Origin: a virus
Lineage: Duplodnaviria; Heunggongvirae; Uroviricota; Caudoviricetes
Strand: one strand, 5' to 3'
Virus record (IMG/VR): IMGVR_UViG_2711768076_000018
Length of the DNA stretch: 15,816 bases
The notes beneath the pieces are model-generated. The model did not search any database and was not told the DNA's origin. It saw only the letters and a program-made list of their open reading frames with translations. Made by a program: the position numbers and the translations under genes. Below are positions 1,885-15,816 of this stretch, in pieces (position 1 is the first letter of the stretch; each line of letters begins with the position of its first letter).

Positions 1885-2178
1885 TTACCGCCGCAACCGC
1901 TCCGGCTTCTTCCAGTGGTAAGTAATTTTTTCTTTCTCCTGGTACATCTCCACGCGGCGACGATATGACAACAACTCCAGAACTCTGGTGCGTATATTGC
2001 GTATATCCACGCCGTTAAGCTCGATACCGTCACGGCGCATCACCTCAGCCACCACACGCGCGTAATTTTTGGCTATCACGCTGTCCGGCTGCGTGGCCTC
2101 CTGTTTGCCTGCTTCCTGGCTGATTCCGGTAACGCGGCGGATTATTTTTAGTAGTTCGGTTTCGCTCATTCTCGTCAT
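1885..2178 (-). CDS. hypothetical protein (97 aa), last gene of packaging operon
   Basis: ATG at 2178 overlaps the TerL stop (ATGA overlap), suggesting translational coupling. No family recognised. Confidence 0.5.
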   Translation of the reverse strand: MTRMSETELLKIIRRVTGISQEAGKQEATQPDSVIAKNYARVVAEVMRRDGIELNGVDIRNIRTRVLELLSYRRRVEMYQEKEKITYHWKKPERLRR

Positions 2179-3836
2179 ACCCCATCAAACGCCGCAAGCC
2201 GCTCTTTGTGGCTGTCGCTCATATCAAATGCAAATTCCTCATGCTCTGCCTGGAATGTGCCAAACGCCATCAGCGCCGCAACGCTCGGGTCTATCTTGTT
2301 GGATGATTTTTTCTTGTTCGGCTTGATATTGGCGTTCGCGTCACTCTGCATCACAACATTACTCATTGACCAGGCCAGCACCGGATCGCCACGATGCACA
2401 ATCACCTTCCGGTTAACAAAAACTTCGAACGATTTCGCCGCCGGACTGAAACGAAGGTATGTTTGCGGGAACGGCTCCACCTCAAATCCTGCCCCCTGTA
2501 GCTGCGTCCTCAGGTGCGTGGCGTTCCATGTATCGAAGCCCACCAGCCTGATATTGAAATTCTCTGCATCCGCCATGATGTCATCACGGATACGGTCATA
2601 ATCAATGCAGTCACCCGGTGTTGTGCGTATCCAGCCCGCCTTTACCCACTGGCGATAGATGGCGCGGTTTTTATTGGCGGGGTTCTGTAGCTGAAATTCC
2701 GGCAGATAGTGACGGGAAACCAGCATAATCTTTTTACCGACCGGAAAGGCATAGCACACGCTGGAAATATCGCTGGTTGATGATAAGTCCAGCCCCGCGT
2801 AGCACTCCTGACCGTATAAATCCGCCTCCGCGAACGTTCCGGCGCACTCCGCCCATGCACCGTTACCCATCCACGGCGTAGCCCCCTGACACCAGATATT
2901 GAATCGCTTGGTGAGCATTTCCACCCACTGCGACGGAATACCCCGCGCTTTCTGGATGGTTGAGGCCAGTTTTTCACGATCGACGGAAACATCGATATTG
3001 GGATTCGCCTTTATCCACATCGCCGGATCGTCAACCTCGCTTTCATCATCCAGCTCGTAAATCAGCACGAACATGGATTCGTTCACCTCTTCACCATCCA
3101 GTATCTGGCAGCAATAGTCATAGTGTTGTTTACAGGCTGAAACAACGTTGCTCCCCGATGTGGTGATGGCAAATAACAGCCCCTCCGGACGCGCCCCCAT
3201 TCCCAGTTCAAGCGCGGAATAAACCCCGTTGTCAGGGTGCAGGTGATATTCATCCACAATGGCAAGACTCGGGTTTGTACCTTCAATGGTTGCCGCTTTT
3301 GCTGCCAGTGGCTTTAACAGGCTGTTGGTTTTCGGGTGTATCACCTTGTGTGCCTGAATATTTACCCGCTTTCGTAACGGTCGGGATAAAAGGCACATCT
3401 GACGCGCATCATCAAACACGATCCGCGCCTGATCACGACTCACGGCGGCGGTGTAAATATCCTGCTGCCCGTTTTCCATAACCAGAAACCAGTTAGCCAG
3501 GATAGCGGCGACCGTGGATTTGGCATTTTTTCGCGGCACTTCAATGAATGCGCTGGTGTATTTGCGCCGTCCGGTGGCCTTAACCTTAAAGCCCAGGATG
3601 CACGCAAAGGCGAACTGCTGCCACGGCTCCAGCTCAATGGGGCTACCGCGCATTGCGCCTTTTACGTGCGGACACACCCTGGAAAAGGCAATAAACCGCT
3701 CCACGACCTCCGGATCGAACGTGTAAAGGGGGTTTTCAAGGTCAGAAAAATACCGTTTAACGGCCTGTTTCAGTCGTTTACAGGCCGTAATTTTGCCGTT
3801 TTTTACGCCTTCTGCGTACTCATGCCAGGCGGTCAA
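2175..3836 (-). CDS. terL: terminase large subunit (HK97-like Terminase_1 family ATPase/nuclease)
   Basis: 553-aa ORF with typical large-terminase length and motifs. The ORF-track start at 3836 is a TTG codon preceded by GAGGA; no in-frame ATG lies nearby. Confidence 0.85.
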   Translation of the reverse strand: MTAWHEYAEGVKNGKITACKRLKQAVKRYFSDLENPLYTFDPEVVERFIAFSRVCPHVKGAMRGSPIELEPWQQFAFACILGFKVKATGRRKYTSAFIEVPRKNAKSTVAAILANWFLVMENGQQDIYTAAVSRDQARIVFDDARQMCLLSRPLRKRVNIQAHKVIHPKTNSLLKPLAAKAATIEGTNPSLAIVDEYHLHPDNGVYSALELGMGARPEGLLFAITTSGSNVVSACKQHYDYCCQILDGEEVNESMFVLIYELDDESEVDDPAMWIKANPNIDVSVDREKLASTIQKARGIPSQWVEMLTKRFNIWCQGATPWMGNGAWAECAGTFAEADLYGQECYAGLDLSSTSDISSVCYAFPVGKKIMLVSRHYLPEFQLQNPANKNRAIYRQWVKAGWIRTTPGDCIDYDRIRDDIMADAENFNIRLVGFDTWNATHLRTQLQGAGFEVEPFPQTYLRFSPAAKSFEVFVNRKVIVHRGDPVLAWSMSNVVMQSDANANIKPNKKKSSNKIDPSVAALMAFGTFQAEHEEFAFDMSDSHKERLAAFDGV

Positions 3837-4176
3837 GCTCGTCCTCTTCCTCTGTTTCCGGTGGATTTCTGCGGCGACTTACCGGGTCAAAACCCAGCAA
3901 AGAAGCCATTTTGATCATTATTCTTTCAGCGTCAGCCTTTGCGCTCAGGGCGGGGTTTCTGCTCTCGCTGCCCTGACTGTTAACAATGCTGAACCCGCGC
4001 GTGGCAAGGTCTTCGACGGCTTTGCGGTATATGGAGTAGTTAACGCAATACAGCTCCAGATTGCTCCAGTCGGCGGGAGTAAGGTCTTCCCGTCCGGAAA
4101 GCTGGCGCGATTTTTCCTTCCACTGCCTGACCGCGATTTCATCCAGGTAAGCGGGGGCTTTTGGTGGTCTTGCCAT
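3820..4176 (-). CDS. terS: terminase small subunit (P27-like family)
   Basis: The C-terminal 119 aa (MARPPKAPAYLDEIAVRQW ...) look like a small terminase. The 47 codons upstream to the ORF-track start (4317) have odd composition and rare codons, so ATG 4176 is preferred. Confidence 0.65.
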   Translation of the reverse strand: MARPPKAPAYLDEIAVRQWKEKSRQLSGREDLTPADWSNLELYCVNYSIYRKAVEDLATRGFSIVNSQGSESRNPALSAKADAERIMIKMASLLGFDPVSRRRNPPETEEEDELDRLA

Positions 4177-4464
4177 GTTCTTTTTTCGCCCAATTATTTT
4201 CAAAAAAATTCCCGTGCACAAAAATTTGAGGAGGCGGTCGGTGTCCGGCAGGGACGGTTTCGTCCTGAAAACCACCCCCACCCCCTCTGACGGCCTCACC
4301 AGCGATTGCGAAAACATTCCATGACCTCGCGGTCACGGTCGGTTAATTGCTTCGCTGTGGTGCGTTCTGTGCGCCCTGTCCTGTTGGCTTTGTGCCCTGT
4401 CTCCTGTGTCTTCCATAAGTCACGCTGCCTTATCAGTCCACGTATCAGCCTGGTTTGCTCCTGT
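4177..4464. other. HNH-TerS intergenic region, candidate cos/packaging site
   Basis: About 290 bp gap containing hairpin GGACGgtttCGTCC (4251-4264) and C-tract CCACCCCCACCCCCTC (about 4272-4287). In HK97-type cos phages the cos site lies between the HNH gene and terS. Confidence 0.3.
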
Positions 4465-4475
4465 TCAGTCATCAT
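4296..4475 (-). CDS. possible small basic protein (about 59 aa) overlapping the HNH 3' end
   Basis: In-frame ATGs at 4481/4475/4472 overlap the last HNH codons (MMTEQEQTRLIRGLIRQRDLWK ...). The SD is weak, so this is speculative. Confidence 0.25.
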   Translation of the reverse strand: MMTEQEQTRLIRGLIRQRDLWKTQETGHKANRTGRTERTTAKQLTDRDREVMECFRNRW

Positions 4476-4905
4476 CGCCATACATCCAGTCGTTACGGTG
4501 TGCTGCCCGTTCTTCCTGTTCGCGATACATGCCCGCCTTACGGTTCGCTTTCGTGGCTGGATCTTCCCGTGTCGTCTTACGGTTGTGGCACGTCTGGCAC
4601 AATGCCTGGTGGTTCCACTCAGGCCAGAAGAGAACATCACCGCCGCCATTGATGGGGATGATGTGATCCACCACAAGAGCTGGCGTATAAATCCCCTTAG
4701 CCAGACAACGCACGCATAACGGGTTTTTGCTCAGGTACAGGGCGCGGTATTTGTCCCACTGTCGGGAATACCCGCGCGCGCGGCGGTGTCCCCGTCTGGC
4801 ATCCTCTGCACGCCATACAGCCCGTCTGTGCTCTTCACACTTGCCGGACTTCACGCGCTTATTACAGCCCGGCTCAGTGCATCGCCTTAATGGTTGCCAC
4901 GGCAT
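4465..4905 (-). CDS. HNH endonuclease (terminase-associated)
   Basis: 146 aa with Cys-rich N-terminus and an HNH motif (DHIIP ... NHQALCQTCHNRKT). ATG 4905 overlaps the stop of the upstream gene (ATGA). Confidence 0.85.
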   Translation of the reverse strand: MPWQPLRRCTEPGCNKRVKSGKCEEHRRAVWRAEDARRGHRRARGYSRQWDKYRALYLSKNPLCVRCLAKGIYTPALVVDHIIPINGGGDVLFWPEWNHQALCQTCHNRKTTREDPATKANRKAGMYREQEERAAHRNDWMYGDDD

Positions 4906-5207
4906 CAGTACACCCCCACATCACGATAAACCGACCAGAGCGCAGAAATAGCCATAGGCAGTTCAGACTGCTCCACTGGTGAAACTGCTTCCCTGTTCTC
5001 GTACAGGAAAGCGATGTACATCAGGCAACCAACACGCATTGCCGGGGTAAATTCCAGCCCGTCTTCAAAACGTTTCCCGATATGCTTCTGGCAGGCTTCC
5101 AGCGCCGCATCGGTATACATTTTCAGAAGTTCGCCTTCACCGGATAAATCATCATCAAGTCGAAGATGTGCCCTGACTTCATCAGGTGTAATTCTGGCTT
5201 CACTCAT
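4905..5207 (-). CDS. head-tail connector / DNA-packaging protein, gp6-like
   Basis: About 100 aa from ATG 5207 (MSEARITPDEV ...) with a strong SD (AGGGAG) just after the portal stop. The ORF-track start at 5270 is GTG and less likely. Confidence 0.65.
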   Translation of the reverse strand: MSEARITPDEVRAHLRLDDDLSGEGELLKMYTDAALEACQKHIGKRFEDGLEFTPAMRVGCLMYIAFLYENREAVSPVEQSELPMAISALWSVYRDVGVY

Positions 5208-6414
5208 CTTTTCTCCCTTTAATTTCCACAGTCTGTTTCCATGCCTGGCTGAACTCATCACCACCTTCACGCGGCGGCATACCCTCGCGTTCGCGAGCTT
5301 CGTTCGGATTCATGATCCCGCTCTTAATCCCTTTCTCATACGTGGCATAACGTTCGGTGGGTGTGGCGCGCAGTAAATCGGCTGAATCAAACTCAACCAG
5401 ATAACGGGTACCAGGTACGGGAGAAGTCACCAGCAAAGCGGCCTTGATTTGCTGTTCGAAGTTCGCCAGCCACGGGCGCATTGTCATGGTCAGAAATGCG
5501 CGGCTCGCCTCACTGAAATTGCTGTAGGTGCTGTTGCTGTATTCCTGAAGAAAAATCGGCGACACGTTGAACATCCTGGCGATGTCTTCAATGGAGAAGC
5601 GACGGGAGGCCAGCCATTCCGCATCCTGGTTACTCATCCCCAGCTGCCTGTAATCCATGCCCCCTTCAAGGATTGGCGTTTTTCCGGCATTTTTCGCCCC
5701 CTTGTAGCGTTCCAGTGCGTCTAATGCCTGTTTACCTTTCACGCCGTCCAGCCATTCACCTGACGTGATAATCCCTGCCGCCATCATGCCATCTTTCATA
5801 ATGCTGGCTCCGTGACGCTGTTGAGCAAGGCCAAGCCCCAGCGCCTCACGGCAAATCGTGACGGGGGAACGCCCCAGAAAGCCATCATCCGAGGCATAGC
5901 GGAGATGCAGAACTTCTTCCTGTAAATACGTGCGCACCGTTCCTGTACAGGGTTCGGTGATGGTATAGCGGTATTTGTGTGTGCCTGTGCGTTCCGGTAC
6001 AACACACCCCGGCGCATAAGGATGAAGTGATTTTGGCTGCCCGTCCCGCCCCCACTCAATAACCGCATAGGCGTTACCGTTCAGCAGGCAGTGACGCATC
6101 ATTGTGCGTTTAAACTGGTAAGGTGTCAGGCACGAATTAGGCTGCTCATTCAGCAGAATATCTACCGGGTGACTGTCCAGCCATTCCCGCGCCTCTCTGC
6201 CCTTATCATTGCGTACCAGATACAGGTAACACGGCATCGTGGCCACCGCCTCAGCGATGACAGAAACCGCGTTCATCACAGCAGGCAATGATTCAGCCGT
6301 CCCGGCAGAAACATATTCTCCGGATCCGGTATTTGGTACACCAGACAACGCCAGAAAATCATCAATGGACAGGTTACGCAGATCGCTTTTTTTACGACTA
6401 AAAGGCCACCACAT
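5200..6414 (-). CDS. portal protein (HK97 family)
   Basis: About 404 aa from ATG 6414 (MWWPFSRKK ...), 1 nt after the protease stop and preceded by a GGGGG SD. The ORF-track start at 6504 is TTG. Size and composition fit a portal. Confidence 0.85.
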   Translation of the reverse strand: MWWPFSRKKSDLRNLSIDDFLALSGVPNTGSGEYVSAGTAESLPAVMNAVSVIAEAVATMPCYLYLVRNDKGREAREWLDSHPVDILLNEQPNSCLTPYQFKRTMMRHCLLNGNAYAVIEWGRDGQPKSLHPYAPGCVVPERTGTHKYRYTITEPCTGTVRTYLQEEVLHLRYASDDGFLGRSPVTICREALGLGLAQQRHGASIMKDGMMAAGIITSGEWLDGVKGKQALDALERYKGAKNAGKTPILEGGMDYRQLGMSNQDAEWLASRRFSIEDIARMFNVSPIFLQEYSNSTYSNFSEASRAFLTMTMRPWLANFEQQIKAALLVTSPVPGTRYLVEFDSADLLRATPTERYATYEKGIKSGIMNPNEAREREGMPPREGGDEFSQAWKQTVEIKGRKDE

Positions 6415-6415
6415 A

Positions 6416-6976
6416 TCACACCCCCGCCAGTTCAGCCCAGCGATGACGATTATTTCCTGCCGGGCGTAATTCAGGGTACTGTGCAAACAACGAACGGTGG
6501 GCAATCTCCACGCCGGATTCGGGATAAGCAGGCATCGATGTTATCGTGATTTCACGGAGTTCTGCTGCGGTTACAGTACGCAGATACGGTTTTTGCGCGA
6601 TATTCCACTCCTCGCATAATGCGCGAAAGCCAAAGCTCATTCCTGTAATATCGCCACGTTCCACCAGCGTAAGCACATCTTTTCCAAGCTGGGTATTTGG
6701 CGGTGTCAGTTCAAAACGTAGCCCGGTGTTATCCTCAGTCAGTACCAGTGAGCCGGATTTGGTACGCCCCAGCAGTTGGGTATAGTCATGCTCATACAGA
6801 CAGCGCACATCATTACCTGCCGCCAGATAGTCAGCAAAAGCCCCCGGCGTGAACTGTTCGCGAAACTCGTCCCAGATAATTTCTGAAAGGCTGTTCCAGC
6901 GAACGGCATAACCCACCAGTTTTTTATCGCTGGCGGTCAGTTCAGATGTACGGATTTCAAAATCGGTGTTTTTCAT
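6416..6976 (-). CDS. prohead maturation protease (HK97 family)
   Basis: 186 aa from ATG 6976 (MKNTDFEIRTSEL ...) with GGAG SD. Conserved GMSFGF-type motif region. The ORF-track N-terminal extension to 7201 overlaps the capsid gene and is unlikely. Confidence 0.85.
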   Translation of the reverse strand: MKNTDFEIRTSELTASDKKLVGYAVRWNSLSEIIWDEFREQFTPGAFADYLAAGNDVRCLYEHDYTQLLGRTKSGSLVLTEDNTGLRFELTPPNTQLGKDVLTLVERGDITGMSFGFRALCEEWNIAQKPYLRTVTAAELREITITSMPAYPESGVEIAHRSLFAQYPELRPAGNNRHRWAELAGV

Positions 6977-6996
6977 CGGTGTACTCCATAAAGCTG

Positions 6997-7020
6997 AAAA
7001 AGGAGGCCGAAGCCCCCTTT
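6997..7020 (-). terminator. intrinsic terminator/attenuator immediately after the capsid gene
   Basis: Minus-strand RNA reads AAAGGGGGC-UUCG-GCCUCCUUUUU: a GC stem with a UUCG tetraloop and a U5 tract, 6 nt downstream of the capsid stop and upstream of the protease SD. Confidence 0.6.
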
Positions 7021-7025
7021 GCTCA

Positions 7026-8171
7026 TTACTTGCCAGCCTGAATTTCCAGAATCTTGATGGCGTTCGAATCCACCACACCACCGCCCAGATATTTCTGGGT
7101 ATAGATGTTAATGAATCCAGGCTCGCTGAAATCCGGACGGGTACGCGTACCGGTTTTATGGTCAACGATGAAATAACCGCGCTTAAAGTCACCGACTGCA
7201 ATCACACCGTCCGGCATAAATTCCAGATATTCAACCGGAAGCCCCAGCAGAGAATCAGGATCACCAGCCTGTAAACGATCGCGCCAGATGTAATCACCAG
7301 TGGCATTTTTCAGTTTTTGTGCGGAGGCGGCTGTATTTGAGTTCATCACCCATACAGCTTTTTTGCGGTACTTATTGCGCAGCGTAAATTTCAGGTCAAT
7401 CAGCATATCGGCGCTGAGACTGCCAGTCACTTTTTTCGTCTGGAGCGTACCGAAAGGACGGGTTTTGTCATTATCCGTAGTGCGCGGGAAAGTCAGGAAA
7501 CCTTTGGCTTTTTTCTCGCCATCACCGGAAACCAGATCCGTTTCTTCGGTATCAACGAAAGTGTCGCCAATTTCAGAAGATAACCAGCCCATAATATCGA
7601 CTTCGGAAAAATCGATAATTTCCTGAGTGGTTTTCGGGTAAGCGTAGATCGGATACAGGCGGATACTGACTTCATTCAGTTTTGGGGTTGCCGTCTGGTT
7701 ACGTGCCGCACCTTCTTCGCCGTGTCCCACGACCGCCCCCCCGGCAGAAACCAGTTGCTTAAATTCATTACTGTGAATGGTTTTAACAGTACAGATTTTA
7801 CGCATCACCGACTCATCAGAAAGCTGACGCATAATTTCTCTGTTCAGTTCCGGGATAACCGTATAACCACCATCAGCCGGAACACTGCCGGACAGGTTGC
7901 GGGTTTCCCCGGTCAGAATGTAAGAGCGTAGCTCATTTTTGGTGATTTTATCTTCGACGGGAACACCAGGCTGGTTACGTTCTTCATCAGCCACAGACTC
8001 GAGGCGGGAAATTTCTGTGTCGAGGGAATCGGCTTTTGCACGCAGTTCATCAAACTGTTTGCCTTCGTCATCGGTTAGACTGCGGTTTTCACTGTCGGCT
8101 TTTTCCAGCAGGGATCGCATCTGGTTTTTCAGGGCGGTTTTTTGCTGGCGGAGTTCGATTAATTTCTTCAT
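7026..8171 (-). CDS. major capsid protein (HK97 fold) with N-terminal coiled-coil delta domain
   Basis: 381 aa, ATG at 8171. The N-terminal 60 aa are coiled-coil-like (MKKLIELRQQKTALKNQ ...), followed by a capsid-shell domain with HK97-like C-terminal motifs. Confidence 0.9.
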   Translation of the reverse strand: MKKLIELRQQKTALKNQMRSLLEKADSENRSLTDDEGKQFDELRAKADSLDTEISRLESVADEERNQPGVPVEDKITKNELRSYILTGETRNLSGSVPADGGYTVIPELNREIMRQLSDESVMRKICTVKTIHSNEFKQLVSAGGAVVGHGEEGAARNQTATPKLNEVSIRLYPIYAYPKTTQEIIDFSEVDIMGWLSSEIGDTFVDTEETDLVSGDGEKKAKGFLTFPRTTDNDKTRPFGTLQTKKVTGSLSADMLIDLKFTLRNKYRKKAVWVMNSNTAASAQKLKNATGDYIWRDRLQAGDPDSLLGLPVEYLEFMPDGVIAVGDFKRGYFIVDHKTGTRTRPDFSEPGFINIYTQKYLGGGVVDSNAIKILEIQAGK

Positions 8172-10205: not shown

Positions 10206-12020
10206 TTAATTTTTGCTGTCGTCATTTGTGACCGATGCACATGATGGCATCCAGTCTTCTGAATCCTCTGTCAGTGTCACATTTGAACGCAAACCGTGCT
10301 TCGTTTTCCGTTTTATATACTCCCTGCCATATTCCGCCATTGCCCCCGGCATATCTTTACCGAAGCGCGTCAGTGTTACAGGTTTACCGAATCCGTGTGC
10401 CCTCATATATGCCAGATAGGCGTGATAAAGATACCTGCGCGGACTGAACGGAATAATTTCGGCATTACCCACTAACAGACCATCACACATTACCGACGAC
10501 ATGAGATAGCCACAGAAGTCCACCAGCGAATCGCCCTCGCGTTTTATCACCAGAGCTTCTTCTGATTTCTGCTGCTCATACAGCAGGCGTTTAGCTTCGT
10601 CCTGGTCAGAAAAACGAGTAAGCAGATGGCGAATCACAACCGCCAGCTCTCCTTCTATTTTTTCTGCCAGCATGGGGTCGCGCTCGTTCTCCGGTACAAC
10701 CTCCGAAAAATTGAATATCACCCGACGACGTGAGATCCCCCCGCTGCGGTCACTGAATGACATGGCGTTATTGTTCACCGCCAGCACGACCGCCTGAATG
10801 CGTGTTGAGTAGGGGGCTTTATGCTTCGGGTCGATTGCCACCTTGTCACCGCCTGTAATAGCCTTAATTCCTGCGCCATCACCAGCGTAGCGGGTCATAT
10901 CCGGCATGATAATCAGCGAAAAGCCAACCACTAACGCGCGTTCCCTTGCATCTTCCAGCGCCTTCATGCTTGCCGATACTGTGTTGGCCTTACCCGCCAG
11001 CATGGTGCAAATCTCCGCCATCACGCTTTTACCACTTCCCCCTGGACCTGTTACCTCAATGAATAACTGCCAGTCGTACCGGTTCGCCAGCACCATGAAT
11101 AATGCAGCCAGCACGCGATCCGTCTTGCGGTCATTCTCTGCCACCGAGCAGCGTAACCACTTCCAGAAATTCGGCGCATGTGTTGCCAGCGTTTCCCCCT
11201 CTGCTGGTGGGCTGAAAGGTAATTCACTGGCAATTAACAACCAGTCGTTTTTGTTATGCTCCCGAAAATTACCTGTTCTGGTATCAAATACCCCGTTACT
11301 GAATCCAATCAGGTTACGGGCTGTATTCCCCATTACAGGCAAACTTAACTTCATGGTATCGACCGCCGATTTAATGGCGTTCTGCGAATAGCTGATCTCC
11401 GCATCAATGAAAATCTGCGCCATAGCACGCTGTAACTCTTTATCCTGAATCGGCTCCCATACAACGCCGTTGTAATGGTGAACAGTGTCAGAGTCGGCAT
11501 GAATCGCCAGTTCACCGCCATAATGTGCCAGGAGAACTTCGCCGCGCTGGCTTGCTCCCATCTGGTTAAGCGCCAGTGGTGCGGCGCTGTCTTCTGTTTT
11601 TTTCTTAACAGGAAGCTGAATCACCAGACCATCAGAAAGATTCTGGCGCTCACGGGCCAGATATTCGCGCCAGTTCTGCACCTCCTGGCCGTGCATACCC
11701 TCAGGATAAAAATTTGCATCCTGTACGCCTGCCGCCGCCAGCTTCTGACCAATCGCCTTTATCATTACTGGCGCAAGATATCCGGCCCTGAATATGCGCA
11801 CGGATTTTCTGCCTTCCGGCACAATTTGCAGCTTATCCAGTTCGGATAACTGCTGCTCCCCAAGCCACACAGGAGGCTCATTATCTCCGGCCATACGCGC
11901 GTCATGTTCCTGCCATTGTTTTGCGTGTGACCAGGCATCACTACCCGCAAAAATAATGACTTCTGTTTCTTTGTGTTTTATGCCGCGTGACTGCTGTTTT
12001 ACGTTCGGTGCCAGTTTCAT
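10206..12020 (-). CDS. primase/helicase replication initiator (P4-alpha-like, Walker A NTPase C-terminal domain)
   Basis: 604 aa with Walker A GPGGSGKS in the C-terminal half, of a size typical for satellite or plasmid primase-helicases. ATG 12020 overlaps the upstream stop (ATGA). Confidence 0.85.
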   Translation of the reverse strand: MKLAPNVKQQSRGIKHKETEVIIFAGSDAWSHAKQWQEHDARMAGDNEPPVWLGEQQLSELDKLQIVPEGRKSVRIFRAGYLAPVMIKAIGQKLAAAGVQDANFYPEGMHGQEVQNWREYLARERQNLSDGLVIQLPVKKKTEDSAAPLALNQMGASQRGEVLLAHYGGELAIHADSDTVHHYNGVVWEPIQDKELQRAMAQIFIDAEISYSQNAIKSAVDTMKLSLPVMGNTARNLIGFSNGVFDTRTGNFREHNKNDWLLIASELPFSPPAEGETLATHAPNFWKWLRCSVAENDRKTDRVLAALFMVLANRYDWQLFIEVTGPGGSGKSVMAEICTMLAGKANTVSASMKALEDARERALVVGFSLIIMPDMTRYAGDGAGIKAITGGDKVAIDPKHKAPYSTRIQAVVLAVNNNAMSFSDRSGGISRRRVIFNFSEVVPENERDPMLAEKIEGELAVVIRHLLTRFSDQDEAKRLLYEQQKSEEALVIKREGDSLVDFCGYLMSSVMCDGLLVGNAEIIPFSPRRYLYHAYLAYMRAHGFGKPVTLTRFGKDMPGAMAEYGREYIKRKTKHGLRSNVTLTEDSEDWMPSCASVTNDDSKN

Positions 12021-12316
12021 TTTTTACCCCTGAATCCGTTAATCATGGTTTTCAGCTTCTGGATGTTTGCCCGTGCCCTGGCGTTGCTGGTGGACACGTT
12101 ATGCGGCGCGGTCTGTACCAGAGAAAAATCACGCCGGAACTGATAAACAGGCATCACGCAATCATATTCGTAACCTTCACGGCGGTAGGTTACGCGCCGT
12201 TCTTCCACGCCCTTAATCATTACCGTGCCGCCGTACTGGTCGCGGTAAATATCGCCGCGCGTAAATTTAGGGTGAGTGTTGCCACTGGCAGTTAAGCCAG
12301 AATATTTAAGTTTCAT
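12017..12316 (-). CDS. hypothetical protein (99 aa)
   Basis: ATG 12316; tightly packed in the operon immediately upstream of the primase. Confidence 0.5.
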   Translation of the reverse strand: MKLKYSGLTASGNTHPKFTRGDIYRDQYGGTVMIKGVEERRVTYRREGYEYDCVMPVYQFRRDFSLVQTAPHNVSTSNARARANIQKLKTMINGFRGKK

Positions 12317-12555: not shown

Positions 12556-13012
12556 GGCTTACATCCTCAGGAAATTTTCTTCTATAACGCGCCTCTGCCA
12601 CATATTCCGCATAATCGGCGGCGATATTCAGTACATCAAGCCCCGTTGATTTATATTCTCTCGTGGAAAGTAAGAAAAAAGCCGCTCTAATAAGCTCTGG
12701 CATTGACGAAAGCGCATCAGCCGCATCATCAGGAACGCCGGAAAATTCCTGTTTCAGGGAATTAAAACGATCATCACGCATAACCCCCCCATTTTCACAA
12801 TCAGCAATCAGGATGGCTTTAGCCTCATTCAGCGCCATATCCGCACTAAGTTGCATAACAGCCAGTGAGTGAGGAACGAAAGCCCCGGCATATTCTGTTT
12901 CGCTGGTGGCGCGCTTATGCGCCTTGTCTGCGATAACAGAAATATCAATCAGCGCGTGCATCAGCGTTTTGATGGCTTCGGCGGCTGCGTCCGGACGGGT
13001 GTTATTGCACAT
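12548..13012 (-). CDS. hypothetical protein (154 aa)
   Basis: ATG 13012 overlaps the upstream stop by 11 nt. Confidence 0.5.
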   Translation of the reverse strand: MCNNTRPDAAAEAIKTLMHALIDISVIADKAHKRATSETEYAGAFVPHSLAVMQLSADMALNEAKAILIADCENGGVMRDDRFNSLKQEFSGVPDDAADALSSMPELIRAAFFLLSTREYKSTGLDVLNIAADYAEYVAEARYRRKFPEDVSHA

Positions 13013-13208
13013 GGCGTACCCCCTGACGAATACGGGCAGCGAATACCATCACGCAGCCATCAGGAGATTGCTGACGCGCTTCCTGTTCGCTGGTGGCCTC
13101 AATGGTAATCACGCGCGGTTGTGCCGTGCTCAGGGCGATAAAACGCCAGATGTATTTATTCAGGTTGTACGAGTCCCGCCCTTGCGGGTGTCTGGTATAA
13201 TTTCTCAT
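13002..13208 (-). CDS. hypothetical small protein (68 aa), first gene of the leftward replication operon
   Basis: ATG 13208 with GAGG SD. This is the in-frame C-terminal part of a 374-aa ORF-track call that is itself implausible. Confidence 0.4.
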   Translation of the reverse strand: MRNYTRHPQGRDSYNLNKYIWRFIALSTAQPRVITIEATSEQEARQQSPDGCVMVFAARIRQGVRHVQ

Positions 13209-13407
13209 AGCTGCCTCGATACTTCTGCTATCGTTGGTGGTTAGAAGCCCGTTGGTGTTGGTAGCACCTGCGGGCTTTGTCTTTTCATCGATTACCTTAA
13301 TAAAGGTGTCAGCCACTATACTAGTGACAGGTGTCAGCCACGTCAATAGTGTTTTTCTATTTTCTTGTGTGTATACTGTCAGCCACCTAATAACAAGGAA
13401 ATCAGAT
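13209..13407. promoter_or_regulatory. divergent promoter/operator region with three TGTCAGCCAC repeats
   Basis: TGTCAGCCAC at 13307-13316, 13332-13341 and 13377-13386. The third copy overlaps a TATACT -10-like hexamer upstream of the plus-strand gene at 13408. On the minus strand the repeats read GTGGCTGACA and contain -35-like TGACA. Confidence 0.45.
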
Positions 13408-13587
13408 ATGGCAACGAAAGCAGTTAATGGAAAATCCAAAAAACTTGAGGCACGAGTACCCCATGCAATAGCTGACGCTGTAGAAAATTTAAAGGAAGAA
13501 GGCGAAAGCACTGGGCAATTTATCGTTTCGGCGCTTGAAGGTGAGATCAAACGCCGCCAGCGCCGAAAGGCCAAAGAGCAGGAATAA
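13408..13587 (+). CDS. small ribbon-helix-helix-like DNA-binding protein (59 aa), candidate regulator
   Basis: ATG 13408 with AAGGAA SD. The predicted strand-helix-helix pattern (KLEARVPHAIADAVENLKEEGESTGQFIVSALEGEI) and basic C-tail fit an RHH protein. It is one of only two plus-strand genes in the element and diverges from the replication operon. Confidence 0.55.
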   Translation: MATKAVNGKSKKLEARVPHAIADAVENLKEEGESTGQFIVSALEGEIKRRQRRKAKEQE

Positions 13588-13644
13588 CCATCACCAGCGC
13601 CGTGGTGTAAGGTATTACGGCGCATTGCTATGCAGGACAACACA

Positions 13645-13818
13645 ATGACCGATAAAGAATTGACCAAAACATTATCACCGACACGGAAAAGACGACGCAG
13701 AAAGATAGAGCATGAATCAGAAAGATTCGCGCCATGTGCTTTTGCCCTTGAGCAATTCCTTAAAGAGTACAGGGAAAAGCGCTCATTGCAGGTATGGCAA
13801 CGAACTGAACCAGACTGA
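13645..13818 (+). CDS. hypothetical small basic protein (57 aa)
   Basis: ATG 13645 preceded by AGGA at 7-nt spacing. Followed by a plus-strand terminator at 13885-13913. Confidence 0.35.
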   Translation: MTDKELTKTLSPTRKRRRRKIEHESERFAPCAFALEQFLKEYREKRSLQVWQRTEPD

Positions 13819-13884
13819 TTGCATTGCCCACCAGCCGCAAATGTGGCATTGTTGGTGATGCTTTTGTTTTCCCTTGTTCCCACT

Positions 13885-13913
13885 GGCGACCCTTTTGCGG
13901 TCGCCTTTGTTTT
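13885..13913 (+). terminator. intrinsic terminator for the plus-strand small-gene unit
   Basis: GGCGACC-cttttgc-GGTCGCC hairpin followed by TTTGTTTTGCTT. Confidence 0.65.
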
Positions 13914-13951
13914 GCTTGTTATCCGGCAATAGTGGCGCTTCACCACACGGT

Positions 13952-14038
13952 TGATATAATTCCCCTGCACTGATCCATTTTTTTCGCAGCAGGTTAATTG
14001 TTCAGAAAGGCGGTTCCTTATCGGGGCCGCTTTTTTTA
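13952..14038 (+). ncRNA. candidate small RNA (about 70 nt) from an extended -10 promoter to an intrinsic terminator
   Basis: TGaTATAAT at 13952-13960 is a consensus -10 with extended TG motif; the -35 is poor. Terminator hairpin GCGGTTCC-ttatc-GGGGCCGC plus T7 lies at 14010-14037. No ORF with an RBS lies between. Confidence 0.3.
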
Positions 14039-14150
14039 TGCCTGAAAATACCCGATAACATGGCTTTTTAGTTTCACCAGGACGAACGAAGCCCCGCCCC
14101 TGTTCGGGCGTATATCCAGTATTCATGGTTAGATCTCTGTGTTAGTGGAT

Positions 14151-14175
14151 GGCTGGCGGCGGTGCGCCGCCAGCC
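14151..14175 (-). other. perfect 11-bp GC-rich hairpin 3 nt downstream of the alpA stop
   Basis: GGCTGGCGGCG-gtg-CGCCGCCAGCC with no U-tract on either strand. Possibly a transcript-stabilising or Rho-related structure. Confidence 0.4.
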
Positions 14176-14178
14176 TGA

Positions 14179-14367
14179 TTAGTGAACTGCCTCGCGGCTG
14201 TCCTTCCATGCCAGAACTTCGGATAAAGACCAGCCAACGGAACGACCGCCGAGTTTACGCCGTGATGGGAATTGTCCGGTCTTCTCCAGGCGATACCGAC
14301 ATGAGCGGCTCAGGCCTGTAAGTTGCTGACATTCTTTTTCACGTATAAAGCGATCTGTGCTTAACAC
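14179..14367 (-). CDS. alpA: AlpA-family (Xis-like winged-helix) transcriptional regulator
   Basis: 62 aa with the AlpA signature: a helix-turn-helix around TGLSRS and a downstream GWSLSEV motif (compare VGW in CP4-57 AlpA). GTG start at 14367 with a strong AAAGGGGGAA SD. Sits immediately downstream of int. Confidence 0.8.
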   Translation of the reverse strand: MLSTDRFIREKECQQLTGLSRSCRYRLEKTGQFPSRRKLGGRSVGWSLSEVLAWKDSREAVH

Positions 14368-14742: not shown

Positions 14743-15816
14743 TTATTTTCTTCTGGCTGCTGGTAGTGCGGTTACGTTTTCATGTGCTCCCGCCAGTATC
14801 CCTAACCGCTCCGTCCACATATCCAGCGCATTGCGTTTCGCATCCAGATAACGGGAGTGATTATAGACTCGTTGCATCCCTGGCATCTGGTGTCCTGTAA
14901 GCTGCTCCACGACATGCGGATCAACGCCTAAATCGTTCAGCATGGTTGTAAAGGTGCGCCGGATGTCATGCAGTGACCAGTGGGGGTGATTAAGCCTCCT
15001 GTGCGCTAATCTTCCATACTGCGATACGCTGGCCTCCTGTTTCACTTCCCCCAGCAATAAGCCCGTGTGCCTGTTCTGCTCCACCAGCTGCGTGATGAAC
15101 GGCAGTATTGCTTCCGGTATAGGCCGGAATATGGCTACCTTCGTTTTGCTGTGCTCCTTCGGAACGGTCCAGAGCATTTCGGTAAAATCCCACTCGCCGA
15201 TCTCCGATAACCTAAGTTCGACCGTCCGGCATCCGAACACAATCAGGAGGCGGATTAGCGCGATGTAGTAGGGGGAAAATATTTTTTTGTCCAGTGCCTG
15301 CAATAATTCGCCCAGCTCTTTATTGCTTAAGACACGTTCGCTTATATCCGGTTTTTTCCCAACGTCCGCTACGTTCAGATCATCGAGAACGTTACTGATT
15401 GCATAGCGCCGCCTCCGGCAGTACTTAAGCGCCTGTTTGCATGTCTGTAGCACGAATCCGGCAGTAACAGGTGTTCGCTTTGCCACCTGGTCAAAGCAGG
15501 CCAGCCAGTGCCGTAGCTCGCATTTATCCAGCGGCATAGCACCAATTTTGGTGATTATGTTTTTATTGATCCGGCTTTTCAGTGATTCGTAATCTGTGCG
15601 CTTTTCCTTTGCGTACGACTCAAGCCAATAGGTGAGCGCATCGCCAACCGTTACAGGCTTTAACGCTTCCTGCATGGTGTAATTCAGTTCATAGCGTGGA
15701 TTTTTCCCCTCAGCCAGCCATGCGCGACACTGGGCGGCTTTTTCCCTGGCTGCTTTCAGACTCAGATCGGGATAATTTCCCAGCTTAACGCGTTCAGGTT
15801 GTGTCCCTCTTCCCAT
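14743..15816 (-). CDS. int: tyrosine integrase (P4/CP4-57 type), 5'-partial
   Basis: 357 aa visible, with the C-terminal catalytic region (HDIRRTF ... YNHSRY). The region LGNYPDLSLKAAREKAAQCRAWLAEGKNP aligns, from memory, to around residues 55-85 of P4-type integrases, so about 45 N-terminal codons probably lie beyond the window. Confidence 0.85.
   Translation of the reverse strand: MGRGTQPERVKLGNYPDLSLKAAREKAAQCRAWLAEGKNPRYELNYTMQEALKPVTVGDALTYWLESYAKEKRTDYESLKSRINKNIITKIGAMPLDKCELRHWLACFDQVAKRTPVTAGFVLQTCKQALKYCRRRRYAISNVLDDLNVADVGKKPDISERVLSNKELGELLQALDKKIFSPYYIALIRLLIVFGCRTVELRLSEIGEWDFTEMLWTVPKEHSKTKVAIFRPIPEAILPFITQLVEQNRHTGLLLGEVKQEASVSQYGRLAHRRLNHPHWSLHDIRRTFTTMLNDLGVDPHVVEQLTGHQMPGMQRVYNHSRYLDAKRNALDMWTERLGILAGAHENVTALPAARRK

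Follow-up and report, generated by a model that had tools for sequence, protein, structure and literature searches.

A predicted ribbon-helix-helix repressor and three operator-like sites as a putative immunity-type switch in a capsid-forming PICI of Escherichia coli

Among the described systems, the immI region of phage P22 (Mnt, Arc, Pant/Pmnt, sar) is the one that the locus analysed here most resembles. There, a small ribbon-helix-helix (RHH) repressor is encoded divergently from the operon that it silences, its operator lies over the promoter, and a short cis-antisense RNA covers the ribosome-binding site of the first regulated gene. P22 immI has two repressor genes and one operator of 17-21 bp, the operon encodes an antirepressor, and the DNA is read by alternate residues of a strand (i, i+2, i+4) ending in arginine, which are Q9/N11/R13 in Arc and H6/N8/R10 in Mnt. 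Omega of the inc18 plasmids, with its contiguous heptads, and CopG are likewise RHH repressors on repeated short sites. In lambdoid immunity, helix-turn-helix proteins (cI/Cro) act at three operators (OR1-3) between divergent promoters with autoregulation, and the repressor head and the operators are swapped as a cassette between near-identical genomes, giving heteroimmune types. The Stl/Rpr repressors of the SaPIs and other Gram-positive PICIs are also helix-turn-helix proteins, of ~250 aa. They silence phage-inducible islands from a divergent control region (PMC6092414). Their genes run in the same direction as int and away from xis and the replication genes, and proteins of the helper phage inactivate them. 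P4 immunity (PLE/PLL, Vis, CI RNA, kil/eta) has an AlpA/Vis-type protein upstream of a leftward replication operon, and in P4 and in P1 immI (c4 RNA-icd-ant) an Icd-type first gene is under RNA control. On the P4 transcript from the upstream late promoter, translation of the kil/eta ORFs reportedly overrides leader termination, a finding ascribed to Forti et al. in 1999. The CI RNA of P4 is summarised in PMC4825925.

The Gram-negative PICIs have been described as AlpA-activated rather than repressor-controlled, and the original prediction for the present locus, which started from this premise, agrees here with Fillol-Salom et al. The alpA product is the known activator of these islands (PMC6092414; cf-PICI preprint). 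Over-expression of AlpA alone induces EcCICFT073 (PMC6092414), and alpA mutation abolishes induction (cf-PICI preprint). The founding paper left the question of a PICI repressor open and called the difference from the Gram-positive elements "a mystery" (PMC6092414).

The window, i.e. the whole stretch of 15,816 bp that was analysed, holds a ~14.5-kb island between allC, which takes up bases 1-1236, and allE. The element has int, alpA and primase in one direction and capsid, portal, protease and terminase genes, all in ~15 kb. Judged by this gene set, which matches the definition of the cf-PICI preprint that we applied, the element is a capsid-forming PICI (cf-PICI). Its main features outside the control region are the following.

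2175-8171, minus strand: full HK97-type head module with small and large terminase
10206-12020, minus strand: D5/P4-type primase
13002-13208, minus strand: Icd-like gene, first gene of the leftward operon (NCBIfam NF033153, E 1e-19)
13630-13818, plus strand: small gene of 62 aa 3' of the RHH gene (PGAP hypothetical, with the PGAP start at 13645)
13885-13915, plus strand: intrinsic terminator of the rightward unit, GGCGACC...GGTCGCC with a T-rich tail (terminator scan)
14010-14037: second hairpin with a T7 run, read from the sequence
14179-14367, minus strand: alpA, 62 aa (Pfam PF05930, E 2.7e-18)
14743-15816, minus strand: tyrosine integrase, cut by the window edge

PGAP names the Icd-like gene "host cell division inhibitor Icd-like protein". 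Three small minus-strand genes, one of them DUF4222, are listed after it, and genes for SSB and a ProQ/FinO-family protein lie on the minus strand as well. Tail or lysis genes were found neither among the ORFs and family matches of the island nor in the PGAP annotation of a 99.5% identical copy, which also sits between allC and allE. The annotation of this copy bears out the claim that the RHH gene and its neighbour are the sole plus-strand genes of the element. The alpA gene is convergent with this rightward unit and co-directional with the leftward operon. Near-full-length copies of the island are present in 22 complete E. coli genomes; among 5,426 complete E. coli genomes, 1,991 contain parts of the island and 1,675 match parts of the control region. 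RgdR has been reported as a regulator "encoded by all E. coli PICIs", and we considered it as a candidate for the RHH protein. It was rejected, as RgdR is the 99-aa DUF4222 protein (12017-12316, with RGD at residues 20-22).

Between the start of the Icd-like gene (13208, minus strand) and that of the 59-aa RHH gene (13408) there is a gap of 199 bp. The predicted elements of the control region, and the gene itself, are these.

13307-13316, plus strand: predicted operator O1, TGTCAGCCAC, in its extended form AGGTGTCAGCCAC from 13304
13318-13346, minus strand: leftward promoter P_L (promoter scan, 9/12 matches)
13332-13341, plus strand: predicted operator O2, TGTCAGCCAC
13372-13377, plus strand: -10 (TATACT) of the rightward promoter P_R, read from the sequence
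13377-13386, plus strand: predicted operator O3, TGTCAGCCAC
13408-13587, plus strand: 59-aa YlcI/YnfO-family protein with a predicted RHH fold, the proposed repressor

The 15,816-bp window contains exactly three copies of TGTCAGCCAC, all on the plus strand and none of them outside the gap. By chance, ~0.03 exact copies would be expected with both strands counted; copies 1 and 2 extend to AGGTGTCAGCCAC. The original prediction had placed three copies of a 10-bp motif in an intergenic region of about 200 bp, and had put one of them over the -10 of the RHH gene. Both its coordinates, which begin at 13209, the first base of the gap, and its description are correct: the first base of O3 is the last base of TATACT, so that O3 abuts the P_R -10, and it covers the start site.

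The leftward promoter is near-consensus, with the -35 TTGACG (13346..13341), a 17-nt spacer and the -10 TAGTAT (13323..13318), and is predicted to drive the operon of Icd-like, primase and capsid genes. O2 occupies the spacer, its last base being one base of the -35, and O1 starts two bases past the -10 of P_L, over the position predicted for the leftward start. For P_R no good match to a -35 was found in the sequence. The same arrangement recurs in a survey of 109 distinct control regions, throughout which the position of O2 (-76) is conserved. A leftward -35 of the form TTGAnG touches O2 in the same register in 88 of these regions, most of the others being one base off, and a leftward TAnnnT follows at a spacer of 16-19 in 102. 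On the rightward side, TAnnnT abuts O3 at a fixed register in 74/109 regions, and TATACT itself stands at the P_R register in 61/109. Such a layout of sites and promoters has the geometry of a repressor that would block the leftward promoter and limit its own synthesis.

We put forward, as the likely reading of the locus, that the 59-aa protein is an RHH repressor which, through three operators, would silence the leftward operon in the manner of an immunity system, beneath the activation by AlpA. An alternative, which we hold to be improbable, is that the RHH protein binds these sites but is a fine-tuning or incompatibility factor, or an activator, and that the island is silent for lack of AlpA. 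The induction of EcCICFT073 by AlpA alone and the loss of induction in alpA mutants are what this alternative would predict, and a role in discrimination would fit both the many specificity classes described below and the occurrence of different classes in two elements of one genome. Against it stand O2 in the spacer and O1 on the start site, which is the geometry of a repressor and is found in ~100 distinct regions. Moreover, a near-consensus P_L that was not repressed would be constitutive, and the putative division inhibitor would be expressed.

The 59-aa ORF is preceded by an AAGGAA Shine-Dalgarno 8 nt 5' of its start. Its product belongs to NCBIfam NF041551 (YlcI/YnfO; 61.9 bits against a cut-off of 30, E 4.2e-17), and PGAP gives the gene the same YlcI/YnfO name in E. 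coli genomes. An AlphaFold2 monomer model built from 26 family members (mean pLDDT 88.6) has an extended stretch at residues 11-18 and helices at 19-28 and 35-58, which predicts with confidence a ribbon-helix-helix fold, i.e. an N-terminal strand followed by two helices. K12, E14 and R16 of the strand are predicted to read DNA. The earlier designation as an RHH-type regulator is thus supported by the confidently predicted fold, and by the strand residues, which track the operators (see below). Pfam, RHH models included, gave no match to the protein at E <= 0.1, and a PDB sequence search with the family profile gave none at E <= 10; together with the lack of a recognisable -35 in P_R, the missing Pfam RHH match and the missing solved relative by sequence are counterpoints to the repressor reading. 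The family is small (94 clusters at 50% identity, found at E <= 0.001 among 1.84 billion representatives), and its named members come from Enterobacterales. A tblastn search of 50,697 phage records found no match to the 59-aa protein, which leaves the idea of a close homologue in the helper phage acting as a dominant-negative partner without support.

The 62-aa gene downstream matches phrog_21027 (E 1.5e-15) and is present in 69 of 174 related loci; it appears to be an accessory part of the rightward unit. We rejected the reading of the RHH protein as the antitoxin of a type II toxin-antitoxin pair with this gene, in which the repeats would autoregulate the pair only. It is very unlikely, because Pfam, NCBIfam and PHROGs yielded no toxin family for the partner, because 105 of the 174 loci keep the RHH gene and the sites and lack the partner, and because two of the three sites are on the other, leftward promoter.

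Comparison with relatives indicates that the sites change with the protein. We assembled ~170 loci encoding relatives (74 distinct proteins) from reference genomes, metagenomes and IMG/VR, in Escherichia, Xenorhabdus, Pectobacterium, Serratia/Rouxiella, Limnobaculum and Pseudocitrobacter. Almost all of them have three similar 10-mers at about -101/-76/-31 from the ATG, with the core (G)TG-N5-CAC, in which TG and CAC are constant and the centre changes jointly at all three sites. Within a locus, the three sites are 85% identical to one another; when a given position is compared across RHH classes, the identity is 59%, little above what the five constant bases TG..CAC account for. Residues 11, 12 and 14 form 11 signatures, found with 18 cores, and we take this to mean at least 11 specificity classes. 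The pairing of residues 11-16 of the strand with the operator is as follows.

KKLEAR: operator TGTCAGCCAC
KKIDVR: operator TGTCAGACAC
KR[FI]D[VA]R: operator TGTC[GC]GACAC
QT[IVFL]AAR: operator TGTTGAACAC
QALKAR: operator TGTGGCCCAC
QKMSAR: operator TGGCACCCAC
QK[IT]SVR: operator TGACGGACAC
QK[LV]QAR: operator TGGA[TG]TCCAC
QSVTAR: operator TGTCTTACAC
QMTTVR: operator TGAAATACAC
QQLNAR: operator TGAATCGCAC
LQVSVR: operator TGAACACCAC

Mutual information with the core is highest for residue 14 (2.80 of 3.71 bits) and residue 12 (2.34 bits). Arg16 is invariant among the family members compared, and substitutions at the hydrophobic, inward-facing positions 13 and 15 are not accompanied by a different operator. 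Linkage explains part of the co-variation between adjacent sequences. It is insufficient as an explanation, since three separate sites stay mutually identical while they change, and since the variation is found on the DNA-facing side of the strand. By this indirect, comparative route, the expectation that alternate strand residues read the bases of short repeated sites is borne out. With its conserved outer triplets, the 11-bp site is wide for one RHH dimer, which is a counterpoint of its own.

The type of site is coupled to the strand signature of the RHH protein and independent of the alpA, int, icd and primase alleles. Seven RHH classes accompany the icd allele of the window (>= 90% identity), four accompany its alpA allele and three its primase allele; conversely, within the KKLEAR class the identity of the alleles ranges over 48-97% for icd, 46-92% for alpA and 42-100% for primase. 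A cassette swap points in the same direction. Between the window and one compared locus (L134), identity is 58-70% inside 13240-13545 and 99-100% on both sides. The segment exchanged is this one.

13240-13545: exchangeable "immunity cassette" with leader hairpin 2, the three operators, both promoters and codons 1 to ~46 of the RHH gene

Of protein-coding sequence, this swapped ~300-bp cassette holds only that for the first ~46 residues of the RHH protein, and 13240-13545 resembles the interchangeable immunity cassettes of lambdoid phages. The swap and the allele test also bear on the idea that the repeats are bound by AlpA, the integrase, the primase (as iterons) or the Icd-like protein, with the RHH gene a bystander. 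Repeats near int/alpA or replication genes are commonly arm sites or iterons, which would make the idea natural. It is most unlikely here, as the type of site is uncoupled from the alleles of all four genes and not from the RHH signature, and as nothing coding other than the 46 N-terminal residues is exchanged with the sites; the iteron or AlpA-site reading was rejected on the allele-independence test. Taken together, these comparisons of sequence indicate that both the repeats and the RHH-type gene are genuine and conserved, and that the two are coupled in function.

The module is present in other islands as well. In the prototype, EcCICFT073, the interval between alpA and an Icd-like gene holds a YlcI/YnfO gene with its small partner, both on the opposite strand; the signature is QALKAR, and the sites are TGTGGCCCAC (twice) and TGTCCCCCAC. 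Both genes bear late-numbered PGAP locus tags, which suggests that they were absent from the original annotation and may explain why the module was overlooked. In strain E300010 there is a second, co-resident cf-PICI with a more distant member of the family, similar to YlcI of K-12 (strand KKNIRF), which has the same three-site layout with three sites of the TGTGCGCACA type and belongs to a different class.

Two further conserved features of the region, neither of them noted in the original prediction, may contribute to its regulation.

13193-13290, plus strand: candidate cis-antisense RNA (extended -10 TGgTATAAT at 13193-13201; RNA ~13208-13290)
13002-14141, minus strand: stop-free frame of 379 codons, in frame with icd

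The candidate RNA would form two hairpins (13208-13243 and 13244-13278), the second followed by a U-rich tail, and is the complement of the icd-like mRNA over its 5' UTR, Shine-Dalgarno and start codon. In an alignment of 43 diverse loci (A3), compensatory changes occur in 16 of 23 pairs, G.U pairs number 82 when read on the plus strand against 7 on the minus strand, and 95.2% of the pairs are canonical as plus strand against 86.0% as minus strand. The plus-strand RNA 13208-13292 folds at -35.9 kcal/mol (z -4.8), its complement at -21.4. Upstream, within codons 3-5 of the Icd-like gene, the conservation of the T, A and T of TAnnnT is at least 90% even though the encoded N-termini differ. The region thus fits a candidate RNA of ~80 nt, antisense to the 5' UTR and start of the icd-like gene. 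Rfam returned no family at gathering score for the window, immunity RNAs of the C4/isrK type were not found, and at E <= 5 there was only a weak SymR-like match (E 0.097), which we used for guidance and do not count as evidence. We dropped from consideration a stretch of 12 nt (13225-13236) that is complementary to the start of the RHH gene, as this match is not conserved in other classes.

The open minus-strand frame spans the antisense of the 62-aa gene, the RHH gene and the control region, with its top ~35 nt past the alpA stop. Over 125 distinct loci, this frame stays open for a median of 329 codons, the corresponding figures for the other two minus frames being 26 and 7, and none of 20,000 shuffles of the window region reached 379. 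The top of the frame overlaps the alpA stop, or is no more than 60 nt away from it, in 58 of 102 loci. Substitution in this frame is not codon-periodic anywhere outside the plus-strand genes, and hence it is the openness that is conserved, and not a protein sequence. Terminators with T tails face rightward only (plus strand). The open frame and the orientation of the terminators hint at leftward read-through from an AlpA-activated promoter with translation of the transcript. That the real gene is instead the minus-strand ORF 13002-14141, with the 59-aa ORF and the "operators" as by-products of its coding, would account for the conserved opening of 379 codons and for the minus-strand pseudogene that PGAP sometimes calls there, and is scarcely credible given the confident RHH model from the family alignment and the curated-family match of the 59-aa protein, the three identical 10-mers at promoter-defined positions, which coding leaves unexplained, the lack of codon-periodic conservation in the control region and the low complexity of the minus-strand translation.

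The repressor reading builds on direct findings: repeated sites, a modelled fold, a geometry that is conserved, sites that co-vary with the protein, an exchanged cassette and a minus-strand frame kept open. What we infer from them, as set out below, concerns binding, the sign of the regulation, read-through driven by AlpA and the parts that the RNA and the frame would play. The two-stranded sheet of an RHH dimer would enter the major groove of the 11-bp pseudo-palindrome (G)TG-N5-CAC, where the variable centre would be read by residues 12 and 14, and the constant flanks probably by the invariant Arg16. Protein bound to O2 in the spacer and to O1 on the start site would close the leftward promoter of the Icd-like/replication/capsid operon, and occupancy of O3 would restrict synthesis of the repressor itself. 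Exchange of the operators and the reading head as one cassette would yield many non-cross-reacting types and make it the immunity determinant of the island. Induction by a helper phage would proceed via AlpA, the likeliest route being transcription from an AlpA-activated upstream promoter that runs leftward across the repressor gene and the operators into the operon. Translation of the open minus frame may shield this transcript from (Rho) termination, and the short antisense RNA at the icd-like start codon may be a second lock on leaky transcripts. Since AlpA alone induces EcCICFT073 (PMC6092414), the repressor could not be an absolute block.

A wider version of the same reading would make the YlcI/YnfO RHH proteins the global repressors and immunity determinants of enterobacterial PICIs, classical (such as EcCICFT073) and capsid-forming, with at least a dozen heteroimmune specificities that two strand residues would determine, AlpA acting by translated read-through and without classical activation of the operon promoter, and a cis-antisense RNA as a guard of the Icd-like gene. 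We offer this three-layer switch tentatively, as a joint claim that is rather doubtful in its entirety. Such a switch, if true, has not been described for any satellite.

When set against the known systems, the switch would work most like P22 immI and be organised like a lambdoid immunity cassette. It shares with immI a small RHH protein, here a proposed repressor, divergent from the operon, predicted operators over the promoter, and strand residues K12/E14/R16 in the register of Arc and Mnt; the candidate cis-antisense RNA over the ribosome-binding site of the first gene may add to the likeness. The locus differs in that there is no detectable sequence relationship (no Pfam RHH match), in having one repressor gene and three 11-bp sites, in an operon of Icd-like, replication and capsid genes in place of the antirepressor, and in its host element, a satellite with an additional requirement for AlpA. 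No match to the Ant/KilA/Bro families was found among the leading genes of the operon; AntA/AntB are listed, however, for some Enterobacter cf-PICIs in which a YlcI/YnfO gene occurs (PMC13612085). The lambdoid likeness lies in three operators between divergent promoters, in the autoregulation proposed here and in the exchange of head and operators, whereas the protein is RHH and not helix-turn-helix, its 59 aa hold no SOS-cleavable domain, and no second, antagonistic repressor was identified in the locus. To Stl/Rpr, which are larger, the proposed role is alike. The RHH gene is placed differently: it is not co-oriented with int, but opposes int and alpA and is convergent with both, and the known trigger here is AlpA expression. 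In contrast to the contiguous Omega heptads, the sites are 25 and 45 bp apart, and the biological context is also another. From P4 and P1 the locus is set apart by the lack of any detected C4/isrK/CI-type RNA, the candidate being a true cis-antisense RNA, and from P4 in particular in that P4 is not known to have a protein repressor of the RHH kind. YlcI (DLP12) and YnfO (Qin) of E. coli K-12 are the namesakes of NF041551 and members of the same curated family, and the K-12-like subtype KKNIRF occurs in the same three-operator layout in the co-resident cf-PICI. K-12 ylcI itself adjoins nohD near cos in a lambdoid prophage, and a search upstream of it did not find the three-site layout.

The original prediction had seen in the locus the layout of a master-repressor switch, as with Stl or cI/cro. 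As read from the sequence, the layout stands, with divergent promoters, three sites and an RHH protein, while the "master" role and the way in which it would be lifted go beyond it as proposals; and of the systems to which it may be compared, P22 immI (Mnt/Arc with the sar RNA) is closer than Stl or cI.

In the literature open without subscription, we found no description of the RHH protein or its operators in PICIs; a 2026 survey merely names a "YlcI/YnfO family protein" among cf-PICI genes. The kind of switch, an RHH protein with its operators, is familiar, and its setting is a family of elements thought to be without a repressor.

Gram-negative PICIs and cf-PICIs are abundant and carry virulence and defence genes between bacteria. 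If our reading is confirmed, the repressor question would become directly testable, given a defined protein with its operators and a recognition code that can be read, and the YlcI/YnfO family would have its first function. It would also explain how several islands can reside in one cell without cross-talk, and would provide small, orthogonal repressor-operator pairs for engineered PICI-based delivery vehicles.

The operators and the first 46 residues of the RHH protein, the proposed repressor, are swapped together as a cassette (window 13240-13545 vs the compared locus L134) between islands that are otherwise 99-100% identical. Moreover, E300010 carries two islands of different classes, as named by RHH strand residues 11-16, in a single genome: KKLEAR, the class of the window, with TGTCAGCCAC, and KKNIRF with TGTGCGCACA. 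Besides the window and L134, this observation covers L180.

L180 12520-12960: further locus of the cassette and class observation
L179 12243-13053 (E. coli CFT073 NC_004431.1 1380242-1381052): EcCICFT073 module

In EcCICFT073, the experimentally studied prototype, the YlcI/YnfO gene lies on the opposite strand with a small partner gene and three sites, as in the window, and the locus tags that PGAP gives to the genes of the module are late ones (C_RS30120, C_RS30125 and C_RS30800). The K-12 namesake, ylcI of the lambdoid prophage DLP12 (L176 8252-8840), is divergent from nohD and near cos. Upstream of it we found CCACGTCAA, which also stands at operator O2 and the leftward-promoter -35 of the window, and no clear three-site array was found in this upstream region.

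Two genes near the control region are as follows.

13002-13208, minus strand: Icd-like gene, first of the leftward operon
13630-13818, plus strand: 62-aa gene following the RHH gene (phrog_21027, a family without assigned function)

Database labels for the Icd-like gene disagree: it is “host cell division inhibitor Icd-like” in NCBIfam, but PHROGs 6196 and 1743 carry the label “transcriptional repressor” (E 3e-43). For some PHROG families, the stretch that matches this gene forms the C-terminus of a longer protein. The 62-aa product is arginine-rich (RKRRRRK), and its gene is confined to 69 of the 174 related loci.

13002-14141, minus strand: stop-free frame of the Icd-like gene, 379 codons, reaching back to just past alpA
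14150-14175, minus strand: GC-rich inverted repeat with 11-nt arms (GGCTGGCGGCG / CGCCGCCAGCC), immediately past the alpA stop

The long frame starts just beyond the inverted repeat, neither strand of which has a U tail, crosses the control region and is antisense to both plus-strand genes. Its openness (at least 200 codons) is kept in 112 of 125 distinct loci; amino-acid-level conservation is absent outside the plus-strand genes.

13193-13290, plus strand: candidate cis-antisense RNA of ~80 nt, facing the Icd-like gene at its 5' UTR and start codon
8684-9214, minus strand: ProQ/FinO-family protein gene (PGAP name)

The candidate RNA has a conserved -10 (TAnnnT) within the Icd-like coding sequence. 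Its two hairpins covary in a strand-specific manner, its tail is U-rich, and it matches no Rfam family. Since structured antisense RNAs are chaperoned by FinO-type proteins, the island's ProQ/FinO-family protein could be its partner.

12017-12316, minus strand: DUF4222 protein, 99 aa, with RGD at residues 20-22

This protein is the counterpart of RgdR (ECs1581/C1493), which has been reported to activate the genes for LEE type III secretion (PMC3378721).
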